In this document: in pieces, positions 1,173 to 35,823 of the stretch
Numbering within the stretch: the first letter of the stretch is position 1
Layout of the letters: every line of letters starts with the position of its first letter
Origin: Candidatus Poribacteria bacterium
Lineage (GTDB): Bacteria > Poribacteria > WGA-4E > WGA-3G
Length of the DNA: 64,000 nt
NCBI GenBank assembly: GCA_964291315.2
Contig: OZ219752.1
Span: 64,001 to 128,000, forward strand
Reading direction: 5' to 3'
Made by a program: the position numbers and the translations under genes
Notes under the pieces: generated by a model
Databases searched by the model: none
What the model was told of the DNA's origin: nothing
What the model saw: only the letters and a program-made list of their open reading frames with translations

Positions 1173-3251
1173 ATGCTGCAGCAGATGTTTTTAAAAGAGA
1201 TGCAACCTAAAAAACAGAAAACTTACCGTCTATTTGCATTAATACCATCACTATTTTTTCTGTTCGTCTATCAGCTGCCTGCTGACAAGCTACCTACTTC
1301 CCATAGCGAGCAATATGTCATCGTAGAGAGTGAAAACGGTGATAGATTGACCGGCACTTGGCGCGGTGCCACCGAAACCCATTTTGAAATAGGGTACCAG
1401 GGACAGATCCTGCGGCTTCCGCTAACAGGATACAGCATTCATTTTACATCAAACCTTGCACATGTTGCAGATCGAACGGCAGCAAAGTACTTTCGAAACG
1501 GACTGATGCTGTTGGAGTTAGGTCTTCCTGAAAAAGCAAAAGGACGTTTTGAAGCCGCCATCGAAGAATTACCGAAATATCCGGCTGCCCACTACCAGCT
1601 CGGATTGCTTTACAAAGCAGATGGGGACAAGACACGCGCGTTGGAACGTTTCCGATCTGTAGCAATTCTCGATGCAGCCAATTATGATCTTGTCCCGATT
1701 TTTGAGGAGTTTGGCGATACTGCACTCGCTAATGAGGCTTATGCTAAGGCAGTGGATAGCTATCAGTTAATCTTAACCCATTATCCAGAACACTCATCTA
1801 CTCCAGCCTTGCGCTATCTCACTGGATTTCTCCTCGCCGAACAGTTAGGAGACGCGGCTGCGGGCCTGCTGCTCCTTGAATCAGCAATAAGACAACATCC
1901 AGATAGTCCCGATGAACGTGAAAAAGCGCTTTTCCTGATAGGGAAACTACAAGCAGAAACGAATCAGTTGGAAGAGGCCCTCCACACTCTGCGGGGGTTT
2001 ATTATGCGTTATCCGACGAGTGAGTGGGTCTATGAGGCACGACTTATCCGCGCTGAAACGCATCTGAAACTCGGTAAACCGGCAGAGGCTGCAAGTGGAG
2101 CGAGACTTATCTACGAATCGAGTATAGATGAAAGATTAAAGGAGCGCGCAAAACAGATTATCGATCAGACCGAGTGGACAATTTACACAAAGACAGACGG
2201 GCTTCCAGACAACCAGATCCAAACGATTGCCAACGATGAAACAAAGTTGTGGATAGGCACTCCGCAAGGTATTATGCTTTTTGAGACTGCCTACGGGAAA
2301 TGGATCTCGATTGAGAATATTCCACAGTTGATTAACAGTGCAGTGGAGACGGTTCCAGATGTTAGAGCTATCGCTGTTAACTCACAGGAGGTATGGATAG
2401 GCACTCGCTTCCAAGGCGCGATTCACTACAACAAGCTAACAAGTGAAATTCAGATATACTCACCAATTGACGGATTCCCTGCTTGGATCAGGGACATCAA
2501 AGTGGACGCAACAGCTGCATGGTTTGCAACAGGTATCGGTGTTATTCGTGAGGTGCGCGGCAGTATCAATCCACCGCTCGTCTACAATACACAAAATAGT
2601 CGGCTTCCGGCGAATAACCTTGAGAAGTTGCTTCTCACGCCCGAGAGGGTTTGGTGTGTCTCAGAAGATGGCGTAATCGGAATATTTGACCGAAAAATAG
2701 AGGAGTGGTATACTTATCATTCAACAGCAATTCGAGAAGAAATGACAATCGTTGGCATTGATACGGCAGCAGAGCAGCTCCTATTTACATGGTTCAATGC
2801 GGATGAAAAATCCAACGGTTATTTCCGAGCCGACTTGGATGGTGGCAATGGAAAGTTGACAACGCTCCATACTGGTATAGACGATGAAAACACGTTGCGG
2901 AACATTTACATTCAAGGAGCTCTTGATACTTCACCTGTCATAGAACCACCTATCGTTGAAGAAAACCTTGAGGAGAAGAGAGACGAAAAAACCGAGACAT
3001 CGTCTGCAGAGCTAGTAGAAGCGGAAGCAACAGAAGCACAACCGCTACCTCCTATATCAGAAGTACCATTAGTGTTGTGGATAGCAACGAACGATCTGTT
3101 TTATACGCACCACACCCGTTCTAGCGCGTGGAAAGATACAAGTACGCCTCAAATCGTATCGGAGGCATTAGCGATAAAATCCCTCGTTGTCGCGAATAAT
3201 CGGGCATGGATAGCGACTACCAACGGCTTAGCATCTGTGAGCGTGCGATGA
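1173..3251 (+). CDS. exported TPR-repeat protein with C-terminal beta-propeller (two-component-regulator-propeller-like repeats)
   Basis: Hydrophobic N-terminus; small beta domain (VESENGDRLTG); multiple TPR helix pairs; DGLPDNQIQTIA...LWIGT propeller repeats; acidic linker. Confidence 0.75.
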   Translation: MLQQMFLKEMQPKKQKTYRLFALIPSLFFLFVYQLPADKLPTSHSEQYVIVESENGDRLTGTWRGATETHFEIGYQGQILRLPLTGYSIHFTSNLAHVADRTAAKYFRNGLMLLELGLPEKAKGRFEAAIEELPKYPAAHYQLGLLYKADGDKTRALERFRSVAILDAANYDLVPIFEEFGDTALANEAYAKAVDSYQLILTHYPEHSSTPALRYLTGFLLAEQLGDAAAGLLLLESAIRQHPDSPDEREKALFLIGKLQAETNQLEEALHTLRGFIMRYPTSEWVYEARLIRAETHLKLGKPAEAASGARLIYESSIDERLKERAKQIIDQTEWTIYTKTDGLPDNQIQTIANDETKLWIGTPQGIMLFETAYGKWISIENIPQLINSAVETVPDVRAIAVNSQEVWIGTRFQGAIHYNKLTSEIQIYSPIDGFPAWIRDIKVDATAAWFATGIGVIREVRGSINPPLVYNTQNSRLPANNLEKLLLTPERVWCVSEDGVIGIFDRKIEEWYTYHSTAIREEMTIVGIDTAAEQLLFTWFNADEKSNGYFRADLDGGNGKLTTLHTGIDDENTLRNIYIQGALDTSPVIEPPIVEENLEEKRDEKTETSSAELVEAEATEAQPLPPISEVPLVLWIATNDLFYTHHTRSSAWKDTSTPQIVSEALAIKSLVVANNRAWIATTNGLASVSVR

Positions 3252-24154: not shown

Positions 24155-25645
24155 CTACTGCATCGGTATGACCGAGACCGAGATATTGGAGAGCGTATAG
24201 AAGATATTAATGAACCCGATGAGGATTGTTGGAATAACAAAAATGCTCAAGAGAGCAAAGGTGCCGGTGGAAAAGGAGGGGCGCGGGGTTTCCTCACCAG
24301 AATCTTCAAGATACATCGCTTTCACAATCCGAGCGTAATAATAGAGCGAAACAACACTATTGATCAGACCGATAAATGCCAGCCAGTAATACCCTTGTTC
24401 CAGAACAGCAGCAAAGAGGAGCCATTTTCCGAAGAAGCCGGCAAAGGGCGGGATACCCGTTAGTGAAAACAGGAAAATCGCCATTGCTCCGGCGACTAAC
24501 GGCGCACGTGAGGCGAGCCCGCGATACCCTTCAATCATCTCGCTACCTTCCTCATTCGCAATGAGGACCACCACATAAAAAGCTCCTAAGTTCATAAAGA
24601 GATAAACAATGAGGTAGAAGAGGATCGCCCCAACCCCCTCAGATGTGAGCAAAACGCCCCCCATCAATAGATACCCACCGTGGGCGATGCTTGAATATGC
24701 CAATAGACGTTTCACGTTCTGTTGAGGGAGCGCCGCGAGGTTTCCGACGCTCATCGTCAGAGCGGAGACGATCGCTAACATGAGCGTCCAGTCAACGGAT
24801 TGCATGACTTCAGAACTACTGAATCCCGAATAGAAGAACCTAATGAACAAGGCAAATCCAGCGGATTTTGAGGCAACCGATAAGAACGCGGTTATCGGGA
24901 TAGGTGCCCCCTCGTAAACATCAGGAGACCACATGTGGAAAGGCACGGAAGCTATCTTATAGCCGACACCGGCGAGGATGAAAATTATTGCAATTAAGAG
25001 AGCTAGCGGATACACTTCGCCTGTTGCCAACAATTCAGTGAGATTTGCGCTAATTTGTACAAGATCCCCAGTGCCTGTCAGACCGAACAAAAGAGAAAGT
25101 CCGAACAGCATCGTCCCAGAGGCAACCGCACCGTAGGTGATGTACTTGAATGCGGCTTCGCTTGAACGCGGGCTATGTGTCAGAAACCCAGCGAGAATGT
25201 AGGAGGTCAAACTCACAGTTTCCAACGAAATGAATATCATCAGCAGGTTGGTTGAAGATGTCATCAAGAACATTCCGAGGGTGATCGCTAACAAGAGTGC
25301 GTAGTACTCGCCCTTCAACCGGCCATCGAGTTCATCGGAACGAAAAGAAAAAAGAATGGTTGCGGCGGTCGCCATCAACAATAGGATCTTAAAAAATGTA
25401 GAAAAAACATCGAGCCGAATCATCCCTAAAAAGAGGGAGACAGATTTTTCTTCACCCAGTTGGGCGTGCGTGACAAGAACTGCGATGAACACACAGCCGA
25501 TACCTACGAGCGAGATATAGGCAACTGCGGCACTCTCTCTGTTTTTCACACCGAGATCGATGAGAACAACGGCGATGGCAAAAAGGACTAACAAGAGTTC
25601 TGGACTGAAATAGAGAAGGCTTTCGATATTGCTTAAAGGTTGCAT
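24155..25645 (-). CDS. nuoN: NADH-quinone oxidoreductase subunit N
   Basis: EAAFKY, KIASVPFHMWSPDVYEGAP, KRLLAYSSIAH and LTGIPP motifs; alternative TTG start at 25654. Confidence 0.95.
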   Translation of the reverse strand: MQPLSNIESLLYFSPELLLVLFAIAVVLIDLGVKNRESAAVAYISLVGIGCVFIAVLVTHAQLGEEKSVSLFLGMIRLDVFSTFFKILLLMATAATILFSFRSDELDGRLKGEYYALLLAITLGMFLMTSSTNLLMIFISLETVSLTSYILAGFLTHSPRSSEAAFKYITYGAVASGTMLFGLSLLFGLTGTGDLVQISANLTELLATGEVYPLALLIAIIFILAGVGYKIASVPFHMWSPDVYEGAPIPITAFLSVASKSAGFALFIRFFYSGFSSSEVMQSVDWTLMLAIVSALTMSVGNLAALPQQNVKRLLAYSSIAHGGYLLMGGVLLTSEGVGAILFYLIVYLFMNLGAFYVVVLIANEEGSEMIEGYRGLASRAPLVAGAMAIFLFSLTGIPPFAGFFGKWLLFAAVLEQGYYWLAFIGLINSVVSLYYYARIVKAMYLEDSGEETPRPSFSTGTFALLSIFVIPTILIGFINIFYTLSNISVSVIPMQ

Positions 25646-25661
25646 ACCTGACAAAAACCTC

Positions 25662-27173
25662 CTATATCGCCTGTAGAACGTTTACGAGGTTGGTAACAGA
25701 CTCTCTGAACATATCAATAGCGAAATTGGGCCAAATACCGAGCACGATTGTTAGAATTCCGAGCGGTGCCAACGTCAAAATTTCGCGTCCGTTTATTTCG
25801 GGGAGTGCTTCGTACTTCGGGTTGAGTGTCCCTAAGAAAACCCGCTGGAGCGTCCAGAGGAAATAGGCTGCACCAACAACAATACCTATTGTTGATAAGA
25901 TAGTCAGCATCTTGAATTTGTCATAAGCACCGAGTAAAGAGAGCGCCTCTCCGACGAATCCGCTCAAGCCGGGCAGCCCCAAAGATGCCATGAATGCAAG
26001 CGTGGTAATGCCGGTATAAACAGGCATTTTTGCGCCGAGACCACCGAACCCATTAATCTCACGATGATGTGCCCTGTCGTAGAGAACACCGACGAGCAAA
26101 AAGAGCATCCCACTGATAACCCCGTGGTTGAACATTTGCAGAATCGCGCCCGTGATACCTTCCGTATTTCGAGCAGCGAGCCCCAAAATGACGAAGCCCA
26201 TGTGTCCGATGCTCGAATATGCCACTAATTTCTTGAAATCGGTCTGGGCCAAAGCACAAAAAGAACCATAGACGATATTAATGAATCCTAGAAGAGCTAA
26301 GCTATTGCCCCAGGGGCCAGTCCCGTTGCAGAAAAAGTCCATACCTTGTGGGAACATTGCCATGTTAATCCTCACAAGTCCGTAGGTTCCCATTTTCAGG
26401 AGGATGCCTGCAAGAATAACGCTAATTGCTGTCGGGGCTTCAACGTGTGCATCAGGGAGCCAGGTATGGAAAGGGAAGATAGGCACCTTAACGGCAAATC
26501 CTATAAAGAAGCCGAGGAAAACCCAGATTTGGAAATTTAAGTTGTTCAGGGCATGTCCTTCCGTAGCAGCTAAGGTAACAAGCGTAGGTATGTCAAATGT
26601 CCGCGCGCCCGGGGCTCCACTGTTGAGATAGACTGCAATCATCGCAACCAGCATCAATACACTACCGAAAAGCGTATACAGAAAAAATTTAATTGCCGCA
26701 TATTCACGACGCGGGCCGCCCCACACACCGATAAGGAAATACATCGGCAAGAGGGTGAGTTCGAAAAAGACGTAAAAGAGGAAAAGATCTAACGCAGCGA
26801 AAAAACCTAACATGCCAGTCTCAAGCAATAGGAACAGTGCCATATATGCTTTGATGCCTTTTTCGATGTTGCGCCAAGAAGCGATGACACAGATAGGACC
26901 TAAGAGAGCGGTGAGAAGCAGAAGCGTTACACTGAGACCATCGATACCGATATGGTATCGGATATTAAATGCCTCAATCCAAGGGATATTGACGACGTAC
27001 TGCGTTCCTGCAGCCGAGCGGTCGTACGATATGAATAAAGCAACAGCGAGTGCAAGCGGAACGAGCGTAAAGAAGAGCGTAACACGTTTAATGAGTTCCT
27101 CCGACTCGCGCGGCAACAGTAAAACAGCAATCATCCCGAGCAACGGGATAAAAATCATTAGCGACAATAACAT
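25662..27173 (-). CDS. nuoM: NADH-quinone oxidoreductase subunit M
   Basis: GIDGLS, AAIKFFLYT, FPFHTWLPDAHVEAPT and GLPGLSGFVGE motifs. Confidence 0.96.
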   Translation of the reverse strand: MLLSLMIFIPLLGMIAVLLLPRESEELIKRVTLFFTLVPLALAVALFISYDRSAAGTQYVVNIPWIEAFNIRYHIGIDGLSVTLLLLTALLGPICVIASWRNIEKGIKAYMALFLLLETGMLGFFAALDLFLFYVFFELTLLPMYFLIGVWGGPRREYAAIKFFLYTLFGSVLMLVAMIAVYLNSGAPGARTFDIPTLVTLAATEGHALNNLNFQIWVFLGFFIGFAVKVPIFPFHTWLPDAHVEAPTAISVILAGILLKMGTYGLVRINMAMFPQGMDFFCNGTGPWGNSLALLGFINIVYGSFCALAQTDFKKLVAYSSIGHMGFVILGLAARNTEGITGAILQMFNHGVISGMLFLLVGVLYDRAHHREINGFGGLGAKMPVYTGITTLAFMASLGLPGLSGFVGEALSLLGAYDKFKMLTILSTIGIVVGAAYFLWTLQRVFLGTLNPKYEALPEINGREILTLAPLGILTIVLGIWPNFAIDMFRESVTNLVNVLQAI

Positions 27174-27197
27174 CTCGTAGGGAGCCTCCTTATCCCA

Positions 27198-27371
27198 TCA
27201 CCGGAAAATCAAATAGACGACAAACAAAAATATTGGCACTAGAATCCGACAGAGTATAAGAAATATCTCTGCTCTCTTACGCCGCGTTTCGCGGTTCGGA
27301 TGGCAGGAAACAACCCAAACCATAGCAGAACTCAGCAGCGGTAAAAACGGAAACAGTTTAAGCAATACCAT
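27198..27371 (-). CDS. small 2-TM hypothetical protein inside the nuo operon
   Basis: 57 aa MVLLKLFPFLPLLSSAMVWVV...ILVPIFLFVVYLIFR; ATG 11 bp after the nuoL stop with a taagga RBS; fills the nuoL-nuoM gap. Confidence 0.55.
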   Translation of the reverse strand: MVLLKLFPFLPLLSSAMVWVVSCHPNRETRRKRAEIFLILCRILVPIFLFVVYLIFR

Positions 27372-27382
27372 AGAGTTTATCC

Positions 27383-29572
27383 TTACAACACCCGGAAAAC
27401 TAAGATTAACAACACTATTCCTGCCAGCACAACGAAAAGGTAAGTCTGAATCGCCCCGGTCTGGATCCGACGAACTCTTCCACCGACCGACCATGTCACC
27501 TCGGCAACTCGATTGACAAGCCCATCAACGACGTGGTTATCAAAAATGCTAACAAGTACAGCAAGAACATCGCGCGTCGCCCTCCCCACACTGTTGACGA
27601 TGCCGTCAACGATCGTCTCATCGAAGCGGGCGAAGAGTCTCGATTTCCAGACTGTCAAGGCGACTAAAACACCGTTGTAGAACTCGTCAAAATAGTATTT
27701 ATGCCAGAAAAGATTATAAAGCGGTCGGAAAGTCGTTGCGACGGATTCGGCAGACAAGCTCCGTCTATGATAGAACAACCAGGACAGGAATATACCTAAC
27801 CCTGCAACGACGATAGATAACATCATCGCGATGGTATGCGCAGGACTATGTCCATGATGTGCGTCATCTCCGTGTGCACCATGTGTGTCGGATTCGCCTT
27901 CTTCCGCTGCAACGGCTTCAGAAATCCCAAAAAGTGAAAACGGACTAACCGATTCACTGACTTTGCTGTCTGGAGACACACGAGCATGTGTCGGGGCATG
28001 GAGATGGAGTTGCTCTGGCGGTTTAACGTAGCCAACGTTGAACCAGAGCGTGTTGACGATTGGGAAACTCAGCACAGCCAAGACAACGAGAGGGAAAGTC
28101 ATCGTCTTGGGCGACTCATGTGCCACGGCGTGCATCTCCTGGTTTCGCGGTTTGCCAAAAAAAGTCATAAAGATTAGACGGAACATATAGAACGCGGTAA
28201 TTCCAGCAGCAAAGAGTGCCATACCGAATAGCACATAATGATGAACAGAGTTCCATTGCATCGCGCGATCTAACACGCCCGCTAAAATCGCGTCCTTACT
28301 CCAGAAACCTGAGAAGATAAACGGGACACCAGAAATAGACAACGTTGCAATGAGCATCGTTATGAAAGTAATAGGCATCTTATGCCGTAGACCACCCATG
28401 TTCCGCATATCTTGGTCCGGCGGAATATCAGAACCGAGAACGGGTTCTGAACCGTGATTCGCACCGTGTTCATGCCCGTGGGCATCGGTGTGCATTGCAT
28501 GAAACGCGTGGATAACACTGCCAGAACCAAGAAACAACAAGGCTTTGAAGAAAGCGTGAGTTGTAAGGTGAAAAAGCCCCGCGACATAACTACCCGCGCC
28601 AATGCCAAGCATCATATATCCGAGTTGGCTGACAGTAGAATATGCTAAGACTCGCTTGATGTCAAAGCGAACCATAGCAATAGTTGCAGCAATAAGTGCG
28701 GTAATACCACCGACATAAGCAATTATCAGAGACGAGGTTTCTGTCAAGATTGGGAACATCCGGGCAGTGAGATAGACACCGGCGGCAACCATCGTCGCGG
28801 CATGAATCAACGCACTGACGGGTGTAGGACCTTCCATCGCATCCGGAAGCCACGTATGGAGGGGCATCTGTGCGGATTTCCCGACAGCACCACAAAACAC
28901 AAGAACACCGGCAGTAGAGAGCCATATCATATCGCCTGTGCTTAATTGAGATGCAGCTTGGGCGAAGATGCCGCCTTCACCGTAGAGTGAGAGCGTGTCG
29001 AATTTGGTAAAAAGCATCATCATACCGATAAACATACCGACATCACCCACACGTGTCGTCAAGAACGCTTTTTTACATGCATTCGCAGCCGAGTCCTTTT
29101 CAAACCAGAAACCGATGAGCAGATAAGAGCAGAGCCCAACGAGTTCCCAGCCGATATAGATACCGAGTAGGTTATCTGATACGACTAAGAAGAGCATCGA
29201 AAAGGAGAAAAGCGAAAGGAAAGCAAAAAAGCGTGGGTACCTCGGATCACCGTGCATGTAACCTATAGAGAAAATATGGACAAGGCTACTGACGAGCGTG
29301 ACAACAATCAGCATGATTGCGGTGACACTATCAAGGTAAAAGCCCATCGAGAAGGTAACGCTGCCGAGCGAAAGCCACTGAACAGTATGGGAGGCTGGAT
29401 CAGGTACTACCTCTCGCAAGAGCAAAAGCGAGCAAACGAGCGCAATGAGCATTGCTGCCGTAGATAGGTAGTCCTGCCGGGGCACGCTCCGCTTCGCTAA
29501 GCCTGAAAGCCCGAAGGTTGCAAAGGCAGCAAGCGGACAGAGCAAGATGAGACTTATTAAAGGTACAACCAT
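27383..29572 (-). CDS. nuoL: NADH-quinone oxidoreductase subunit L
   Basis: GKSAQMPLHTWLPDAMEGPTPVSALIHAATMV and HAFFKALLFL motifs; His-rich inserts. Confidence 0.96.
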   Translation of the reverse strand: MVVPLISLILLCPLAAFATFGLSGLAKRSVPRQDYLSTAAMLIALVCSLLLLREVVPDPASHTVQWLSLGSVTFSMGFYLDSVTAIMLIVVTLVSSLVHIFSIGYMHGDPRYPRFFAFLSLFSFSMLFLVVSDNLLGIYIGWELVGLCSYLLIGFWFEKDSAANACKKAFLTTRVGDVGMFIGMMMLFTKFDTLSLYGEGGIFAQAASQLSTGDMIWLSTAGVLVFCGAVGKSAQMPLHTWLPDAMEGPTPVSALIHAATMVAAGVYLTARMFPILTETSSLIIAYVGGITALIAATIAMVRFDIKRVLAYSTVSQLGYMMLGIGAGSYVAGLFHLTTHAFFKALLFLGSGSVIHAFHAMHTDAHGHEHGANHGSEPVLGSDIPPDQDMRNMGGLRHKMPITFITMLIATLSISGVPFIFSGFWSKDAILAGVLDRAMQWNSVHHYVLFGMALFAAGITAFYMFRLIFMTFFGKPRNQEMHAVAHESPKTMTFPLVVLAVLSFPIVNTLWFNVGYVKPPEQLHLHAPTHARVSPDSKVSESVSPFSLFGISEAVAAEEGESDTHGAHGDDAHHGHSPAHTIAMMLSIVVAGLGIFLSWLFYHRRSLSAESVATTFRPLYNLFWHKYYFDEFYNGVLVALTVWKSRLFARFDETIVDGIVNSVGRATRDVLAVLVSIFDNHVVDGLVNRVAEVTWSVGGRVRRIQTGAIQTYLFVVLAGIVLLILVFRVL

Positions 29573-29677
29573 ACTTTCTATTTTTGAGCCTTTCTATTCT
29601 TTTTGAGTTACCCGGTCTCGACTAGCGTTTAAGAGAGCGTTGATAATCGGGGAACCTCTTGATAACAGACAACTATT

Positions 29678-29986
29678 TTAACCTTTTAGAGTATCCACTT
29701 CGTTAGGACGGATGCTACCGAATTCGCGGTAGATAGCGAGAATGATTGCTAGAAAGACAGCGGCCTCTGCGGCAGCAAGCACGATCCCAAAAATAGCGAT
29801 AATTTGTCCACTGATGTCCTCTGGCGGTGTCCTAAAATGCGAAAACGCCGCGAAGTTAAGATTGCATGAGTTCAAAATAAGTTCAATTCCCATCAAAATA
29901 CTGATAGCATTCCGGCGAGTCAAAACGGCAAAGATACCGAGCGTAAATAGAAGCGCGCTAACAACAAGATAGTGTTGTAAGGTCAT
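29678..29986 (-). CDS. nuoK: NADH-quinone oxidoreductase subunit K
   Basis: RRN..ILMGIELILN and AAAEAAV motifs; 3 TM. Confidence 0.95.
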   Translation of the reverse strand: MTLQHYLVVSALLFTLGIFAVLTRRNAISILMGIELILNSCNLNFAAFSHFRTPPEDISGQIIAIFGIVLAAAEAAVFLAIILAIYREFGSIRPNEVDTLKG

Positions 29987-30505
29987 TTAGTCCCTAACCT
30001 CCTTTCGAGAAATCAGGGCGGCTCCGATTAAAGCGACTAATAATAGGACAGAGACGACCTCAAACGGGAGAAGAAAGGGACCATTGAGAATCAGTTCCCC
30101 GATACGTTCAGTTGTTGGTGGAAGCTCGGTACCATCATCACTAAGGTTCTTCCAGGCAGGGGTATTCGCAATAACCGTCAAGAGCAGCATCAGCAACGTC
30201 AAGGCAATCACACCGCCCAATAAGAGCTGCCCACGCTCAATATGGATTCGCATCTCCAAGCGCCCACTTGTCATCATGACTCCAAATAGAATCAAAACCA
30301 GGATACCACCGACGTAAACAATTACCTGCGTTGCAGCAAGAAAATCCGCCTGTAGGAAGACGTAAAGTCCAGCAACACCAAAGAGCGTTACCATGAGCGA
30401 GAAGGCCGCATGGACGATGTTTCGCACCGTGACAACAACAAGCGCTGAGGCGATTGTCATAAGTGCGAAACCGTAAAAAATAAAAGTTTTAAGTGTAAAT
30501 TCCAT
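29987..30505 (-). CDS. nuoJ: NADH-quinone oxidoreductase subunit J
   Basis: QVIVYVGGILVLILF and LPFEVVSVLLLVALIGA motifs. Confidence 0.95.
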   Translation of the reverse strand: MEFTLKTFIFYGFALMTIASALVVVTVRNIVHAAFSLMVTLFGVAGLYVFLQADFLAATQVIVYVGGILVLILFGVMMTSGRLEMRIHIERGQLLLGGVIALTLLMLLLTVIANTPAWKNLSDDGTELPPTTERIGELILNGPFLLPFEVVSVLLLVALIGAALISRKEVRD

Positions 30506-30641
30506 TTTTAAACTAGCAAAAGCGAATTATCAAGGTTCTTTGACATGCTGATCCTTTGCTTAGGTCCGCACTGCAGTCGTTGTTGCAGTGTCACTAGCTT
30601 TAGGCATTTTTTGTAGTTCTCTCAGCCACATCGTGAATGAA

Positions 30642-31361
30642 TTACTCTGTGGTCTCTAAAACTTCGGGACCGCTTTTACTATACATCTCCTGCTTGTCGA
30701 AATGGAAGATCAAATCAGTTCTATCAAATTTTGAGTACTCAATACCTTCGAGAGTATCCTTCATTATAAGGCACTCTGTCGGGCAGACCTCAGTGCAAAG
30801 CCCACAATACATACAGATAGACATATCAATATCGAACTGGTCGAGGTAGAAAACAACAGGATTTCGCGTAACAATGCGGGATACCTCGTCTACAGTAAAA
30901 ATCTCGGTTCGACTCTCACTCCCTGAGGGCTCAAGGCGGTCTATGGCCTCCTGAGGACCTTGGCGAGAGGTGACATTCGTGATTGTTATTGAATCTGCGG
31001 ATTTTATTTTTTTGTCGTCGCCCTCAATGATACCAATCACTTCTCGTCCATCTTTGAGATGCACGACGTTCATGCTGTCCCACAACTGTTCGCCCTTTGG
31101 CAGCTTCGTCCCTGTAATGGTAATGCAATCGACAGGACAAATCATCTCACACTTTTTGCATCCGATACAATCTTCAATACGGTTATAAAGCTGCCCGCGG
31201 TACCCTTTCGGAATTTCCCGGACGTTTCGTTTCCTTTCATAGTCGTGTTCATAAGGATATTGGTGCGTGACGTTGGGTTCAAAGAATTGCCTGATCGTTA
31301 CCCGCATCCCGACGAGGACGGTATAAATGCCTCTGTAGATGTTCCGTATGTACTTGTCCAT
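30642..31361 (-). CDS. nuoI: NADH-quinone oxidoreductase subunit I (two 4Fe-4S) with internal insertion
   Basis: T.QYP; CIGCKKCEMICP; CMYCGLCTEVCP; position between nuoH and nuoJ. Confidence 0.92.
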   Translation of the reverse strand: MDKYIRNIYRGIYTVLVGMRVTIRQFFEPNVTHQYPYEHDYERKRNVREIPKGYRGQLYNRIEDCIGCKKCEMICPVDCITITGTKLPKGEQLWDSMNVVHLKDGREVIGIIEGDDKKIKSADSITITNVTSRQGPQEAIDRLEPSGSESRTEIFTVDEVSRIVTRNPVVFYLDQFDIDMSICMYCGLCTEVCPTECLIMKDTLEGIEYSKFDRTDLIFHFDKQEMYSKSGPEVLETTE

Positions 31362-31403
31362 TTTCAGATCTCTCCTTTAACGACTGGCGAGTACAGATCC
31401 CGC

Positions 31404-32669
31404 CTAACTCGGTTGTGGGGCTGGCTTCTGCGTAAGACTCCGCCCAGCAATTTTATATGCAGCGATAAGCCCAATGTAGATAAGCGTGCAGCTAATGCTT
31501 GTGCTAATCAGAGTATCTTCCGGAAAAATGAGTCCCCAGATGCCAGTGCCTAAGATGTTAAAAAAGGCAATCGGAATGAAGTATTTCCAACAGAGATTCA
31601 TCAGTTGATCTACCCGTAAGCGTGGCAAGGTCCATCTCAGCCACATCATCAAGAAAACGAGTGCTAATGTTTTTATAACGAACCCCGGGAGCCCGCCGAG
31701 AATATCGTATCCTGGTAATGCCCCTTCCCACCCTCCGAGGAAAAGCGTCACAGCGATCGCGCTCACAGCGAACATATTCGCGTATTCGGCAATAAAGAAA
31801 AGTGCGAAACGCATTCCGCTATACTCTGTGTGAAAACCTGCAACAATCTCAGACTCGGCTTCGGGCAAATCAAAGGGGGTCCGATTAACTTCAGCAATTG
31901 AAGATATAAAGAAGATAAAAAATGCGATAAAAGTAAAGGGGGTCCGAAAAATCAGCCAGCTAAAGACACCATTAGACTGGGCTGCTACAATTTCCTGCAT
32001 GCTCAAACTTTCCACGAGCATGACGATGGTCAGAATAGAGAGGCCCAGCGGAATTTCATAACTGACAATCTGCGCGGCGGCGCGGAGTGAACCTAAGAGC
32101 GACCATTTGCTGTTAGAGGACCAGCCCGCCATAATTACACCCATAACGATGACAGAGGAGATCGCCATGATGTAGAAGATGCCGATATCAAAATCGCTCA
32201 CTAATATATTTTGACTGAACGGAATAGCAGCAAAAACAGCAAAAGAGCAAGCAAAAATTACATAAGGAGCAAGCAAGAAAAGCAATTTATCGCCTTGAGG
32301 AGGGATATAATCCTCTTTGAAGATCAGTTTAACCCCATCAGCCAACGTTTGAAGGATCCCCCAGGGGCCAACTCGCATGGGGCCCGTTCGATTCTGAAAA
32401 CGGGCAGCGACTTTGCGCTCGGCAAGTACTAACACCAATGGAAGCAATGGAACCACAGCAACGAAAATACCAGCACAGGCAAACATAACGAGGACCGTGC
32501 CTAACTCCATAGGGAAATGTGAGGCGACCGCCTCCGGCAAACGCGGAACGACAATGTTCTTTACAAATTCCTCCGCCCAATTGAGTCCATCTTGCAAGTT
32601 TATATTCGGAAAGAAAGCTTCAGATACACCGAAATATGGGTTTGCAAGCATTGCCCTAAAGTCCGACAT
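31404..32669 (-). CDS. nuoH: NADH-quinone oxidoreductase subunit H
   Basis: ERKV.ARFQNRTGP, DGVKLIFKE, NRTPFDLPEAESE and PRLRVDQ motifs. Confidence 0.96.
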   Translation of the reverse strand: MSDFRAMLANPYFGVSEAFFPNINLQDGLNWAEEFVKNIVVPRLPEAVASHFPMELGTVLVMFACAGIFVAVVPLLPLVLVLAERKVAARFQNRTGPMRVGPWGILQTLADGVKLIFKEDYIPPQGDKLLFLLAPYVIFACSFAVFAAIPFSQNILVSDFDIGIFYIMAISSVIVMGVIMAGWSSNSKWSLLGSLRAAAQIVSYEIPLGLSILTIVMLVESLSMQEIVAAQSNGVFSWLIFRTPFTFIAFFIFFISSIAEVNRTPFDLPEAESEIVAGFHTEYSGMRFALFFIAEYANMFAVSAIAVTLFLGGWEGALPGYDILGGLPGFVIKTLALVFLMMWLRWTLPRLRVDQLMNLCWKYFIPIAFFNILGTGIWGLIFPEDTLISTSISCTLIYIGLIAAYKIAGRSLTQKPAPQPS

Positions 32670-32764
32670 CTGACCTCCTTATCTGATTTAACAACCGGTT
32701 GCCCAAAATTAACCCCGCATCTTCCCAAGGGAAAATATAGACTATATTACGCCGCCAAGTGCGT

Positions 32765-33970
32765 TTACCGATCCACCTCACCCATTACAACATCGATACT
32801 GCCGATAATGGCGATAATATCTGCTACCATCAAACCCTGACTGAGTTCCTGCAGTGCACTCAGCGCACTAAAGCAGGGAGAACGCCCCTTCACACGCACC
32901 GGTTTCGGGGTACCATCACTTACGATATAAAATCCGAGTTCCCCGCGTGGTGCTTCACTGCGAAAATAAATCTCGCCTTTTGGCGGACGGACAGCTTTCA
33001 ATTCTGCCATAATTGGGCCACCCGGAAGCCCTTCTGCTAAAATCTGTCGAACAATTCGGGCAGATTCCTTCATTTCGTCCATCCTGATTTTGTATCGACT
33101 CCAGCAATCACCGACAACTGAGCCTAATTCTGGAACATCCACGGCAACAGGCACATCAAAGTCAAACCTGTCATAAATGGAATACGGTTCGTCTCGCCGG
33201 AGATCCCAATCTATACCAGAACCGCGAAGGTTGGGCCCCGTAGCACCATAACTGAGGGCCATACCCGGGGACATAACAGCGACCCCTGTTGTGCGTTCCG
33301 AGAAGATGCTGTTTTTGGTTAGGAGTTCATTATACTCATCAATCTTCGGTTCAAAATAGTCTAAAAACCCTTCTATCTCATCTAAATAATTCTGCTCGGC
33401 AACAGAGCCGGGCTCCATCGGTATGATCTCGGAGACACCACCGATGCGGACATAGTTATAGGTAAGTCGTGCACCACAGATTTTCTCGAAAAGGAGAAGT
33501 AGCCGCTCACGGTCGCGAAAGGCATAAAGGAAAGGTGTAAACGCACCGAGGTCCATACCGTAGGTTCCAAACGACAAGAGGTGACTGGCTATACGGTTCA
33601 GTTCGCAGATGAGCACCCGAAGGTACTCCGCCCGTTCTGGCACCTTAAAGCTCCGGCGTTCATCCGCCTCCAATAACTTCTCAACGGCAAGACAAAATCC
33701 CCAATTTTGGTTCATCGCTGCTACGTAATCCATCCGGTCAGTAAAGGGAATGATTTGGGGATAAGAGAGATTTTCGGAATGCTTCTCGAAACAGCGATGC
33801 AGGTAGCCGATATGCGGAATCGCTTCACGGACAACCTCACCATCCAATTTCAACTCCAATCGCAACACACCATGTGTACTTGGGTGCTGAGGACCCATGT
33901 TCACCACCATCTCATCGGCGAAGGGTTTTAATTCGATAATTTTACTTTCAGTCTGTTGTGTTGCTTCCAT
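32765..33970 (-). CDS. nuoD: NADH-quinone oxidoreductase subunit D
   Basis: NMGPQHPSTHGVLRL, GYLHRCFEK, EAPRGE and GEVDR motifs. Confidence 0.97.
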   Translation of the reverse strand: MEATQQTESKIIELKPFADEMVVNMGPQHPSTHGVLRLELKLDGEVVREAIPHIGYLHRCFEKHSENLSYPQIIPFTDRMDYVAAMNQNWGFCLAVEKLLEADERRSFKVPERAEYLRVLICELNRIASHLLSFGTYGMDLGAFTPFLYAFRDRERLLLLFEKICGARLTYNYVRIGGVSEIIPMEPGSVAEQNYLDEIEGFLDYFEPKIDEYNELLTKNSIFSERTTGVAVMSPGMALSYGATGPNLRGSGIDWDLRRDEPYSIYDRFDFDVPVAVDVPELGSVVGDCWSRYKIRMDEMKESARIVRQILAEGLPGGPIMAELKAVRPPKGEIYFRSEAPRGELGFYIVSDGTPKPVRVKGRSPCFSALSALQELSQGLMVADIIAIIGSIDVVMGEVDR

Positions 33971-34026
33971 AATATGGGTCTTGAAAACTCAAAGTTACTG
34001 CCGACATCTATCTACTCAACCAATAT

Positions 34027-34055
34027 ATGATACCACTTTTGCAGTCTAATGTCAA
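34027..34055 (-). promoter_or_regulatory. internal sigma70 promoter upstream of nuoD
   Basis: TTGACA-17 bp-TATCAT with TG extended -10, in the 300-bp nuoC-nuoD gap. Confidence 0.7.
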
Positions 34056-34270
34056 ATCTCAATCTGTCTTTTTGGCAAAGATTTGTGTCGTGATTCAGGG
34101 GCCTGTCCTATATGAAAATGTTAGACCGGGGTAACATCTCATATTCTAGCATTTGTGTTTACAAACCTGTGTGCGGCCTAAGTATCGGGCATTCTAATTT
34201 CGACGATCAGCTGTGAAAAACGATAAAGTGTAACGTTTTCTGTGTTGCACAGCAACCCACAATCCTCTGC

Positions 34271-34756
34271 TTAATAGGGCACCCGCATGCCGCGGTAAAA
34301 TTCGGGTTCCTTGTAATCCTTGCGTAAGGGGTACCCCTCCCAATCGTCCGGTAATAAGATGCGACGGAGATCCCCGTGTCCCTCAAAGATAATTCCGTAG
34401 AGATCATAAGTTTCACGCTCGTGCCAATCTGCTGTTTTCCAGATATGTGAGACGCTCGGAAGGCGTGGATTCGTTTTCGGTACGAGGGCTTTGAGGACTG
34501 CGCTCTGCCGATGTCGCATAGCATAGATGTGGTAGACGACAGCAAAAACTTCATCTTTGGCGTTCAGATCGAGACCGCTGAGACACATCAAAGAATCGAA
34601 TGCCAAGACATTGGTCTCGGCGAGATATTTGCAGACATCGGCAATTGCTGAGGGGATAATGTGGATGCTCGGGTCACCTGCAAGCTCAGTATCAAAAGCG
34701 AGAATGGCTTCACCAAACTGCTTGGTTAGAACTTCATAGATTTCTTCCGGTTTCAC
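34271..34756 (-). CDS. nuoC: NADH-quinone oxidoreductase subunit C
   Basis: ADWHERETYDLYGIIFEGH.DLRRILLPDDWEGYPLRKDY motif. Confidence 0.95.
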   Translation of the reverse strand: MKPEEIYEVLTKQFGEAILAFDTELAGDPSIHIIPSAIADVCKYLAETNVLAFDSLMCLSGLDLNAKDEVFAVVYHIYAMRHRQSAVLKALVPKTNPRLPSVSHIWKTADWHERETYDLYGIIFEGHGDLRRILLPDDWEGYPLRKDYKEPEFYRGMRVPY

Positions 34757-34817
34757 GCAATTCCTACTCCATGTTCGTAATTATAAATTTGCATCTACCG
34801 TTAGACGCTAAGGTGTG

Positions 34818-35423
34818 CTAAGCAGTATTTTCCGCTTTACCGCCCTCCGCAGCCGGTGTTGCTGCCTCAGACTCAGCTTCAGTTGCCTCAAGTTCGTACC
34901 ATTCCGTTTTGGTAAAGAGCCTTTTCAAGAACGGAACATGTGCACGTTTAGCGACGGTTTGTGTTCTAATTTTCTCTTGTAGTTTGAGCAACCCTTCGAT
35001 AAGTGCTTCTGGCCGTGGTGGACATCCCGGCACATAAACATCAACAGGGATAATACGGTCAACACCTTTGAGGACGTGATACCCGTGTTGCCAATAGGGG
35101 CCACCACTGGTTGCACAGCTCCCCATTGAAATGACATATTTCGGTTCCGGCATCTGTTCATATAATCTGCGGATCCGGGTCGCCATTTTGAGGGTCACCG
35201 TACCAGAAATAACCATCAGGTCAGACTGGCGTGGTGTTGCACGCGGGACCCCAGCACCGAACCGGTCGAGGTCGTAGTTAGAAGCGGCTGTCGCCATAAA
35301 TTCAATCGCACAACATGCAAGACCAAACGTCATGGGCCAAAGTGCAGAGGAACGTGCCCAGTTGGCAACAACGTCAACCGAGGTAACAATAACGTTTTTG
35401 TTTAGTTTCTCATCAATTATCAT
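34818..35423 (-). CDS. nuoB: NADH-quinone oxidoreductase subunit B
   Basis: [13 protein letters not shown] and [13 protein letters not shown] motifs; ATG 35423 behind GGAGGG, overlapping the nuoA end. Confidence 0.96.
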
Positions 35424-35823
35424 AATTTTCTTCCCTCCGTAGAGATTGAACTTCCAACTGTGTGGAGCGGATCCACTCCAGATCACCTTTTGCCCAAACA
35501 TAGGCAAGCCCGACTAAAAGAATAACAATGAAGACGAGCATTTCTAAAAACGCAAAGAGCCCAAAGTCCCGGAAAACAACTGCCCACGGAAAAAGGAACA
35601 CAGCCTCCACATCGAAGATTAGAAAGATAAGCGCGATAACGTAAAAACGCGTGTTAAACTTGATCCGCGTGTCACCGACCGGATCCTCACCACATTCATA
35701 GGGTATATACTTTTCGCCCGAGAATATTTTAGTGTGGAGAAGGCGAGATATAGTCAGATTTAAAACGACAAAGAAACTGCCAACAACTAAGAAGATTAAC
35801 ACATTTGCAAAGTTAAAAAGCAT
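35413..35823 (-). CDS. nuoA: NADH-quinone oxidoreductase subunit A
   Basis: YECGEDP, FLIFDVE..FLFPWA and KGDLEW motifs. Confidence 0.96.

Follow-up and report, generated by a model that had tools for sequence, protein, structure and literature searches.

What does an extra domain do in the NuoI subunit of a complex I-like enzyme that has no NuoE, NuoF or NuoG? The question is raised by a stretch of 64,000 nucleotides from a Candidatus Poribacteria bacterium (GenBank assembly GCA_964291315.2, contig OZ219752.1, positions 64,001 to 128,000; the whole stretch is called the window here). Its reverse-strand open reading frame (ORF) 30642-31361 is nuoI and encodes the insert-bearing NuoI of 239 residues (P0001). 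A first-pass annotation had picked out positions 30867-31079, which are NuoI residues 95-165, as an inserted barrel-like domain, and had suggested that it could be a built-in docking domain for an alternative electron donor or partner. We find that the insertion is real, selected and clade-specific, and that its conservation, its operon context and its place in the sequence are plain. It is a lineage-specific decoration of the peripheral arm of complex I, a kind of addition that is already known; this particular variant was not found described in the accessible portions of the literature on NuoI insertions, Poribacteria NuoI, Sm-like domains in NuoI and 11-subunit enzymes.

The two CxxCxxCxxxCP motifs of the protein start at C65 and C183 (regular expression on the translation) and lie 118 residues apart. 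The first-pass annotation had rightly judged this spacing long, since insert-less relatives have 43-51: it is 48 in the canonical NuoI of the same genome (P0121), and the two NuoI genes found in one sister-family genome give 51 and 43. The difference is due to about 80 extra residues, roughly 90-171, at the tip of the hairpin that joins the two 4Fe-4S motifs. We set the boundaries of this module by alignment with the insert-less ortholog of the sister family (query residues 1-93 and 172-223 match) and with a lipoprotein that carries the same module. Pfam finds only 4Fe-4S ferredoxin models in the protein, each split over two stretches, and both Pfam and NCBIfam match the flanks only. The curated TIGR01971 model of NuoI aligns with residues 18-96 and again with the C-terminal part; its score of 84.0 bits falls short of the 113.05-bit cut-off because the insert splits the match. 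All NuoI equivalog models score P0001 under their cut-offs, so that on whole-protein score it falls outside the family.

The protein is recognizable as NuoI by other features. Both cluster motifs, which supply the ligands of N6a and N6b, are present, and their cysteines and prolines are invariant in 23 sequences (alignment A2). As in NuoI, NDUFS8 (TYKY) and NdhI, these motifs are accompanied by a conserved N-terminal QYP motif, and the gene lies between nuoH and nuoJ; the order H-I-J recurs in 10 of 11 related loci, the eleventh beginning at a contig end. The top matches among sequences of solved structures are NuoI, TYKY and NdhI chains, over both flanks. In the best of them, 7ar7_I, query residues 15-88 and 175-217 pair with chain residues 23-93 and 101-140, which leaves 86 query residues against 7 in the chain; unlike NuoI, NDUFS8 and NdhI, the Poribacteria protein has an inter-motif hairpin whose tip bears additional residues. 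The operon has the order nuoA-B-C-D-H-I-J-K-L-M-N, with each of the ten genes other than nuoI assigned by Pfam to a complex I family and no NuoE, F or G gene between nuoD and nuoH or elsewhere in the operon. Thus, the window encodes an 11-subunit, EFG-less enzyme (nuoA-D plus nuoH-N).

With the insert alone (residues 84-176) as query, a search of 151 genomes from the phylum recovered it in 138 of the 139 that belong to four families of one Poribacteria order (f1, 98/99; f2, 10/10; f3, 26/26; f4, 4/4), the single genome lacking a match being 93% complete, and in none of 11 genomes of five other Poribacteria families (f5-f9). Such recurrence excludes a chance origin. Scanning 185,579 species, each represented by a single genome, we confirmed 142 stretches that encode a relative; the best 80 comprise 76 titled Poribacteria and four titled 'uncultured bacterium'. 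Run without filters over 1.84 billion representative proteins, phmmer gave six matches, all NuoI-type proteins or fragments. The 120 best of 3143 database relatives are 221-241 residues long, share 81-100% identity and, where named, come from Candidatus Poribacteria.

Insert length differs between families, with motif spacings of 117-118 in f1, 99 in f2 and f3 and 104-112 in f4, because of one f1-specific loop (residues 132-149). Identity between f1 and f2-f4 is 52% and 41% in the strand regions of the insert, 62-89% in the host regions and 8% in the loop columns. The most conserved stretch, L-W-D-S-M-N-V-V-H-L-K-D, is near-invariant over the four families and has many polar or charged residues; G90, W94, G110 and R166 are likewise invariant or nearly so among the NuoI sequences. 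Within f1 we pooled the ratio of nonsynonymous to synonymous change (dN/dS, Nei-Gojobori) over 63 ungapped genes, namely the window's and those of 62 of the 80 species-scan loci; the other 18 had no ungapped gene of 239 codons. The ratio is 0.047 for the host regions, 0.083 for the insert strands and 0.094 for the loop, values that are approximate because dS is 1.1-1.4. Thus, the insert is under purifying selection and not drifting, and even the loop is still constrained within f1. Nor is its composition foreign, at 48.4% GC against 43.9% for the host and 47.1% for the window. An intein or an active in-frame mobile element was considered and rejected on several grounds: a length of about 80 residues, no Pfam match, one or two copies per genome, the low dN/dS and a GC content near the host's.

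The insert is provisionally read as a five-stranded small barrel of the Sm/SH3 type. Modelled alone with AlphaFold2 (AF2) from a 38-sequence alignment, it reaches a mean predicted local distance difference test (pLDDT) of 63.6 and a predicted template modelling score of 0.51, with no residue at pLDDT 90 or above. The predicted strands occupy insert positions 15-19, 24-29, 41-49, 70-73 and 77-81 (NuoI residues ~98-102, 107-112, 124-132, 153-156 and 160-164), with a short helical turn ahead of the last strand. The f1 loop, modelled as disordered (pLDDT below 50), sits between strands 3 and 4. The model and the conservation together support a domain that is not disordered except for this one lineage-specific loop, in keeping with the first-pass annotation, which had called the insert not low-complexity and recognized a small-barrel pattern. 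In Foldseek against the PDB the top rows are Lsm and Sm proteins (best E 3.9e-3, none at E 1e-3 or better), and VIA-align over 48,161 chains places the Lsm chain 6ppv_A first, with Z 6.2 and a root-mean-square deviation of 2.5 Å over 57 residues; 32 chains reach Z 5, none reaches Z 8, and Sm, LSm or Hfq proteins fill most of the 50 listed rows. Sm proteins vary between strands 3 and 4. The insert would share with Sm, LSm and Hfq a five-stranded bent barrel and a variable loop at this same place; unlike them, the module lies inside another protein and is not a ring oligomer, it has no Pfam LSM match, and nothing suggests RNA binding.

Profile methods place the insert in no known family. Pfam gives none at E up to 10 for the insert in the middle of NuoI, LSM included; a PDB profile search with the insert alignment finds nothing better than E 0.28; and an ESM Atlas search for look-alikes of residues 88-174 gives no usable match. 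Kinship with YgdI/YgdR (DUF903, PF06004) was tried and set aside. There is a weak profile similarity between the insert and YgdR (2jn0, E 0.45) with a shared ...V..I.ER ending, and the second protein in which the module occurs is a lipoprotein; PF06004 nevertheless matches neither nuoI nor the lipoprotein gene in five genomes at E up to 10, which leaves relatedness unsupported. A further proposed relative does not hold up. The first-pass annotation had likened the insert to the start of what it called a tetratricopeptide repeat (TPR) protein at 1173, yet the two give an hhalign probability of 0.4% against the insert profile. The N-terminus of that protein (VIVESENGDRLTG) is also absent from a hidden Markov model search of the whole genome, in which the only match at E < 0.8 is NuoI itself. 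The protein itself (window 1173-3251, forward strand) has 692 residues and begins with a signal-like segment followed by YVIVESENGDRLTG...; a segment of it resembles the first strands of the insert by eye, with no detectable relationship.

By alignment, the module stands just before the basic hairpin residues that are equivalent to the ferredoxin contacts of NdhI. The insert-less ortholog of family f5 (164 and 158 residues, spacing 51) is 51-58% identical to the window protein over query residues 1-93 and 57-63% over 172-223, and it aligns over its whole length with NuoI and NdhI chains of known structure, best with chloroplast NdhI 7wfg_I (E 7e-22), in a near tie with plant TYKY. In the alignment with 7wfg_I the f5 hairpin ...EEAPKGMQFATTSGGMPIRRNASRFDID... 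pairs with ...KL-ETN-I-RKKRLLNYSID.... The window NuoI has K-L-P-K-G-E-Q-L-W ahead of the module and R166-N167 behind it, and R166 pairs with RRN in the insert-less ortholog and, in 7wfg_I, with RKKR (residues 90-93); it is also conserved in the canonical P0121. In the NDH-1L-ferredoxin complex of T. elongatus, as the accessible part of the report gives it, Lys86, Lys89 and Lys91 of NdhI contact ferredoxin, ferredoxin binds NdhI much as it binds PsaC, and cluster N6a is the electron acceptor (PMC7021789). Reckoned from the ranges of the alignment with 6hum_I (query 173-217 = chain 93-134), these lysines fall 12-17 residues before the second motif, hence in the hairpin tip and return strand, so that the module is inserted immediately N-terminal to the donor-contact residues. 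Given the electron path from N5 to N6a in the same partly accessible source (PMC7021789), we infer that NuoG covers this hairpin face in canonical complex I.

The module has also been found in a second protein. A weaker match to the insert in genus g7 is a predicted lipoprotein of 194 residues (L034:8586-9170, forward strand), in which residues 96-157 match the module carried by NuoI in that genome at a Smith-Waterman score of 109, against 27.2 +/- 4.6 and a maximum of 54 in 1000 shuffles; the shared module is about 58 residues, and at the DNA level the similarity is 71% over 55 bases only. The lipoprotein family (45 proteins at E <= 0.01, P0128-P0172; the few named sources are Poribacteria) has a conserved C-terminal WKVVNFDEY and no Pfam match. 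It falls into 34 proteins of 118-136 residues and 11 of 178-194, the longer subgroup coming from genomes G022 and G003 of genus g7. When 19 were aligned, the module lay between two conserved strands in the six long proteins and was absent from the 13 short ones. One source labels a long, module-bearing member 'snRNP-like'. On these alignments two unrelated proteins, a cytoplasmic one and one with predicted export, have each received the module in a hairpin. A stand-alone form was sought by profile search and found in none of five sister-family genomes at E <= 1. Among proteins of 35-163 residues there were 21 matches, seven of which we read; 15 have Fer4, and five of the six without it are NuoI or lipoprotein fragments (the sixth, P0178, was left out). 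Thus, no stand-alone ancestor was found among the 1.84 billion representatives, the sister-family genomes or these short proteins.

The absence of the N-module, on which the first-pass annotation had built its proposal, applies to the operon and not to the cell. The same genome carries a second operon on another contig: nuoD is followed by a methylase/HNH gene, then by nuoE, F, G, H and J, then by a gap the size of nuoK, and then by nuoL, after which come three ORFs of M/N-like size (judged by size). H and J lie 11 bases apart here, leaving no nuoI; the separate canonical NuoI P0121 (201 residues, 110 bits to TIGR01971) is encoded next to guaB and an MT-A70 methylase gene. Orthologs of P0121 occur in 49 of 54 sampled f1-f4 genomes. 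Four of the five genomes without one belong to genus g7, the fifth being 90% complete, and in all four g7 genomes a second nuoH is directly followed by a different canonical nuoI, which scores 170-173 bits with TIGR01971. No E, F or G homolog lies near the insert-bearing nuoI in any of the 11 related loci that were fetched. The predicted co-occurrence of the insert with the absence of nuoEFG thus stands in one direction, in that the insert is confined to the EFG-less operon. It fails in the other, since an EFG-less operon of family f5 has an insert-less NuoI. The insert-bearing NuoI appears to be dedicated to the EFG-less enzyme, and the canonical NuoI appears to serve the EFG-containing one.

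The mechanism that we propose would run as follows. The host is the NuoI, of the NDUFS8/NdhI type with two 4Fe-4S clusters, of a complex I-like enzyme that has 11 subunits and no NADH-oxidising NuoEFG module. In one order of Poribacteria a module of ~58-80 residues has entered the tip of the beta-hairpin that links the cluster-binding motifs; it is most likely an independent five-stranded Sm/SH3-type barrel, whose adjacent N- and C-termini would suit a hairpin. On its return strand that hairpin has the basic residues equivalent to the ferredoxin contacts of photosynthetic NDH-1, on a face that NuoG would cover in canonical complex I and that would be the donor face in EFG-less enzymes. There the barrel would buttress and shape the exposed donor face, as NdhS, NdhV and NdhO do in cyanobacteria, and would commit this NuoI to the EFG-less complex, the second, canonical NuoI serving the EFG-containing complex of the same cell. 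We judge this account, in which NuoI has its own accessory barrel at the donor face, like the small subunits of NDH-1, to stand at about an even balance; the fold of the insert, its place in space and any role in donor binding are matters of inference.

Several results weigh against it. Among lineages the net charge of the insert varies between -7 and +6, which speaks against an electrostatic docking face that is conserved; the ferredoxin-binding pocket described for NDH-1L, by contrast, is consistently basic. A homologous module occurs in a predicted exported lipoprotein, where docking of a cytoplasmic donor is impossible, and this would suggest a generic self-contained barrel rather than a dedicated cytoplasmic redox-partner domain. 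The sister family f5 runs an EFG-less operon with an insert-less NuoI ortholog, so that the EFG-less enzyme predates the insert and does not require it. The model of the insert is of moderate quality, and all structural matches lie under the decisive level of the tools (Z < 8, Foldseek E > 1e-3); the full-length AF2 model (23 sequences) is poor, with a pLDDT of 44.1, and the orientation of the insert on the Fe-S core cannot be read from it. NdhS is absent among the matches listed by the PDB profile search, Foldseek and VIA-align, which does not in itself exclude a likeness to NdhS. Finally, no electron donor or partner was identified for the insert-bearing NuoI; the small ferredoxins or flavodoxins of the genome are candidate donors, among them ferredoxins with two 4Fe-4S clusters in tandem frames of 100 residues (G000:C4:365937-366793). 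The original notion of a built-in docking domain therefore fares unevenly: the place, predicted fold and conservation of the insert fit it, and the variable charge, the lipoprotein and the presence of NuoEFG in the genome do not. A stronger form of the same idea is that Poribacteria evolved, in cis and independently, a counterpart of the separate subunits of cyanobacteria and chloroplasts, a small barrel on the NuoI/NdhI hairpin that forms part of the donor docking site of an EFG-less complex I and chooses the low-potential carrier (ferredoxin, flavodoxin or a dedicated dehydrogenase), the module being portable, hairpin-insertable and present in at least two unrelated proteins. We offer this only tentatively and consider it rather improbable as a whole.

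The rival that survives best is a purely structural cap, in which the barrel would cover or stabilize the NuoI surface bared by the missing NuoG, protecting N6a or aiding assembly, and would recognize no donor. The variable charge and the use of the same barrel in an unrelated exported lipoprotein both speak for it, purifying selection would suit a packing role equally well, and lineage-specific stabilizing extensions around NuoI are known in E. coli (PMC8357420, as far as its accessible part goes). Nevertheless, the near-invariant L-W-D-S-M-N-V-V-H-L-K-D, so largely polar and charged, is more than packing usually needs, the insertion point is exactly the donor-contact hairpin, and the sister family does without such a cap. 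We regard the cap as a possible but doubtful account. An in-frame insertion that is tolerated but has no role itself would be a hairpin-compatible module spread by recombination and kept only because its removal would disrupt folding. This would explain why the same module stands in hairpins of two unrelated proteins, why no homolog of known function was found and why the insert-less ortholog is, by inference, functional; however, a dN/dS of 0.08-0.09, near the host's 0.05, retention in all but one genome across four families, a near-invariant 12-residue motif of surface type, a GC content that is not foreign and at most two copies per genome, which indicates no active mobile element, make it very unlikely.

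A last possibility concerns an orphan gene encoding a NuoE-NuoF fusion, which stands alone, 63 kb from the end of the window. FpoF is the input module on the archaeal Fpo complex, and the insert might by analogy be a docking adaptor for a dedicated dehydrogenase input module of this sort. Full-length orthologs of the fusion, at 66-89% identity, occur in 54 of 54 sampled f1-f4 genomes. Six sampled genomes of other families (f5-f9) have no such ortholog; their matches reach at most 46% identity and are nearly all to the NuoF part only (one, in G004, spans positions 7-536 at 38% identity and has an in-frame TAG). In genus g7 (G022, L083:3122-5899), the fusion gene is followed by the alpha subunit of formate dehydrogenase (FdhA) in frames of 375 and 533 residues, split by an in-frame TGA within ...NCSRA*HAPTV... 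that may encode selenocysteine. Beside the fusion gene at f2 and f4 loci are ORFs of FdhA-like size (judged by size); the FdhA of the window's own genome is unlinked to it (G000:C4:695000-697681). With FdhA beside it in genus g7, the fusion protein most plausibly belongs to an NAD-dependent formate dehydrogenase, as its FdsB-like diaphorase subunit, and we downgraded it as the missing input module. The adaptor reading, which has in its favour that the fusion shares the phyletic pattern of the insert, is the least probable of all, since that match is a single lineage-level coincidence and the neighbouring FdhA fits an FdsB-like subunit.

Table 1. Features of the EFG-less nuo operon, of its NuoI and of related genes elsewhere in the genome. 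Plain coordinates refer to the window; those with a locus or contig label lie outside it.
Feature	Coordinates	Strand	Basis or remark
EFG-less nuo operon	24155..35823	-	ORFs and Pfam
nuoA	35413-35823	-	Pfam
nuoB	34818-35507	-	Pfam
nuoC	34271-34756	-	Pfam
nuoD	32765-33970	-	Pfam
nuoH	31404-32669	-	Pfam
nuoI with inserted domain (P0001, 239 residues)	30642..31361	-	translation, TIGR01971 and PDB chains on flanks
First 4Fe-4S motif, CIGCKKCEMICP, residues 65-76	31134..31169	-	regular expression; four Cys and Pro invariant in A2
Inserted module, residues 90-171: G-E-x-L-W-D-S-M-N, five predicted strands, ends V-V-F	30849..31094	-	alignments and AF2 strands
f1-specific loop between predicted strands 3 and 4, residues 132-149, SRQGPQEAIDRLEPSGSE	30915..30968	-	absent in f2/f3, different in f4, pLDDT <50
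R166, basic, return strand just past module	30864..30866	-	invariant in A1 and A3 (12-sequence insert alignment)
Second 4Fe-4S motif, CMYCGLCTEVCP, residues 183-194	30780..30815	-	regular expression; invariant in A2
nuoJ	29987-30505	-	Pfam
nuoK	29678-29986	-	Pfam
nuoL	27383-29572	-	Pfam
nuoM	25662-27173	-	Pfam
nuoN	24155-25654	-	Pfam
Second, EFG-containing nuo operon	L004:1358-12807 = G000:C4:1527357-1538806		DNA methylase/HNH gene between nuoD and nuoE
Canonical nuoI	L015:7001-7606 = G000:C4:437000-437605		alone, ~1.1 Mb from second operon
NuoE-NuoF fusion protein, 544 residues	L003:7344-8978 = G000:C3:190343-191977	-	

Other features of the nuo genes differ between lineages. For NuoD of the EFG-less operon, the three f1-f4 sequences aligned share an insertion of 8 residues (alignment A6; VDVPELGS in the window) that is missing in both f5 orthologs and in the canonical paralog, the same distribution as that of the NuoI insert. 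The window NuoD (32765-33970) has a further 8-residue insertion near residue 185, and five aligned NuoD sequences of the EFG-less type are without ~21-30 residues that the canonical paralog has around ...GLIHHFKVIMDGHG.... Loci L030 and L031, from the f1 genera g3 and g5, differ from the window: the 7 kb fetched showed no nuoA, B or C upstream of nuoD, and the operon may be split there. In genus g7, G022:C1:3620836-3626433 and its equivalents in G003, G007 and G039 hold the canonical nuoI after nuoH together with a NuoF-like frame of 439 residues, which suggests that the EFG-containing operon of this genus was replaced or is of other origin. The EFG-less operon of family f5 runs ABCDH-JKLMN, its insert-less NuoI-1 gene being located elsewhere, on another contig; in G101, one of the two genomes, that gene is ~3 kb from the canonical nuoI. 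The nuoJ ORF of the f5 operon has 323-324 residues, about twice the usual 172 (L067:8611-9585, L068:7164-8135).

Among known systems, one close parallel is NdhS, which with NdhV and NdhO is a small accessory subunit at the ferredoxin site of the cyanobacterial and chloroplast NDH-1. In the accessible part of the structural report, NdhS is SH3-like and lies in a groove of NdhI about 25 Å from ferredoxin, with no contact to it (PMC7021789). It is seated on NdhI close to the donor site, at the apex of a complex I-type enzyme that lacks EFG, and the Poribacteria module, a predicted small barrel, is attached to the corresponding subunit at the ferredoxin-contact hairpin; unlike NdhS, which is a separate polypeptide, the Poribacteria module is fused in cis. 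A second parallel is offered by clade-restricted additions to the peripheral arm, namely the C-terminal tails of E. coli NuoI, NuoB and NuoF, the NuoG loop and T. thermophilus Nqo15, which, from what is accessible of the source, add inter-subunit contacts (PMC8357420). The Poribacteria insert is likewise a clade-restricted addition around NuoI; unlike the tails and the NuoG loop, which belong to complete 13- or 14-subunit enzymes, it is a predicted folded domain within the NuoI hairpin of an EFG-less enzyme.

To our knowledge, the electron donor of EFG-less complex I-like enzymes in many non-photosynthetic bacteria has largely been inferred, and structures that show how the exposed N6a face is protected or used are confined to photosynthetic NDH-1 and a few hydrogenase relatives. 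A conserved domain at the donor-contact hairpin would be a natural handle on the donor, which could be deleted, mutated or used as bait, and a natural comparison is at hand in the canonical NuoI of the same cell and the insert-less ortholog of the sister family. The presence of the module in a second, unrelated protein makes it a clear case of domain insertion into beta-hairpins, which may serve protein engineering. Finally, in the Poribacteria, uncultured symbionts of sponges, the insert would mark the two complex I enzymes as mechanistically distinct.

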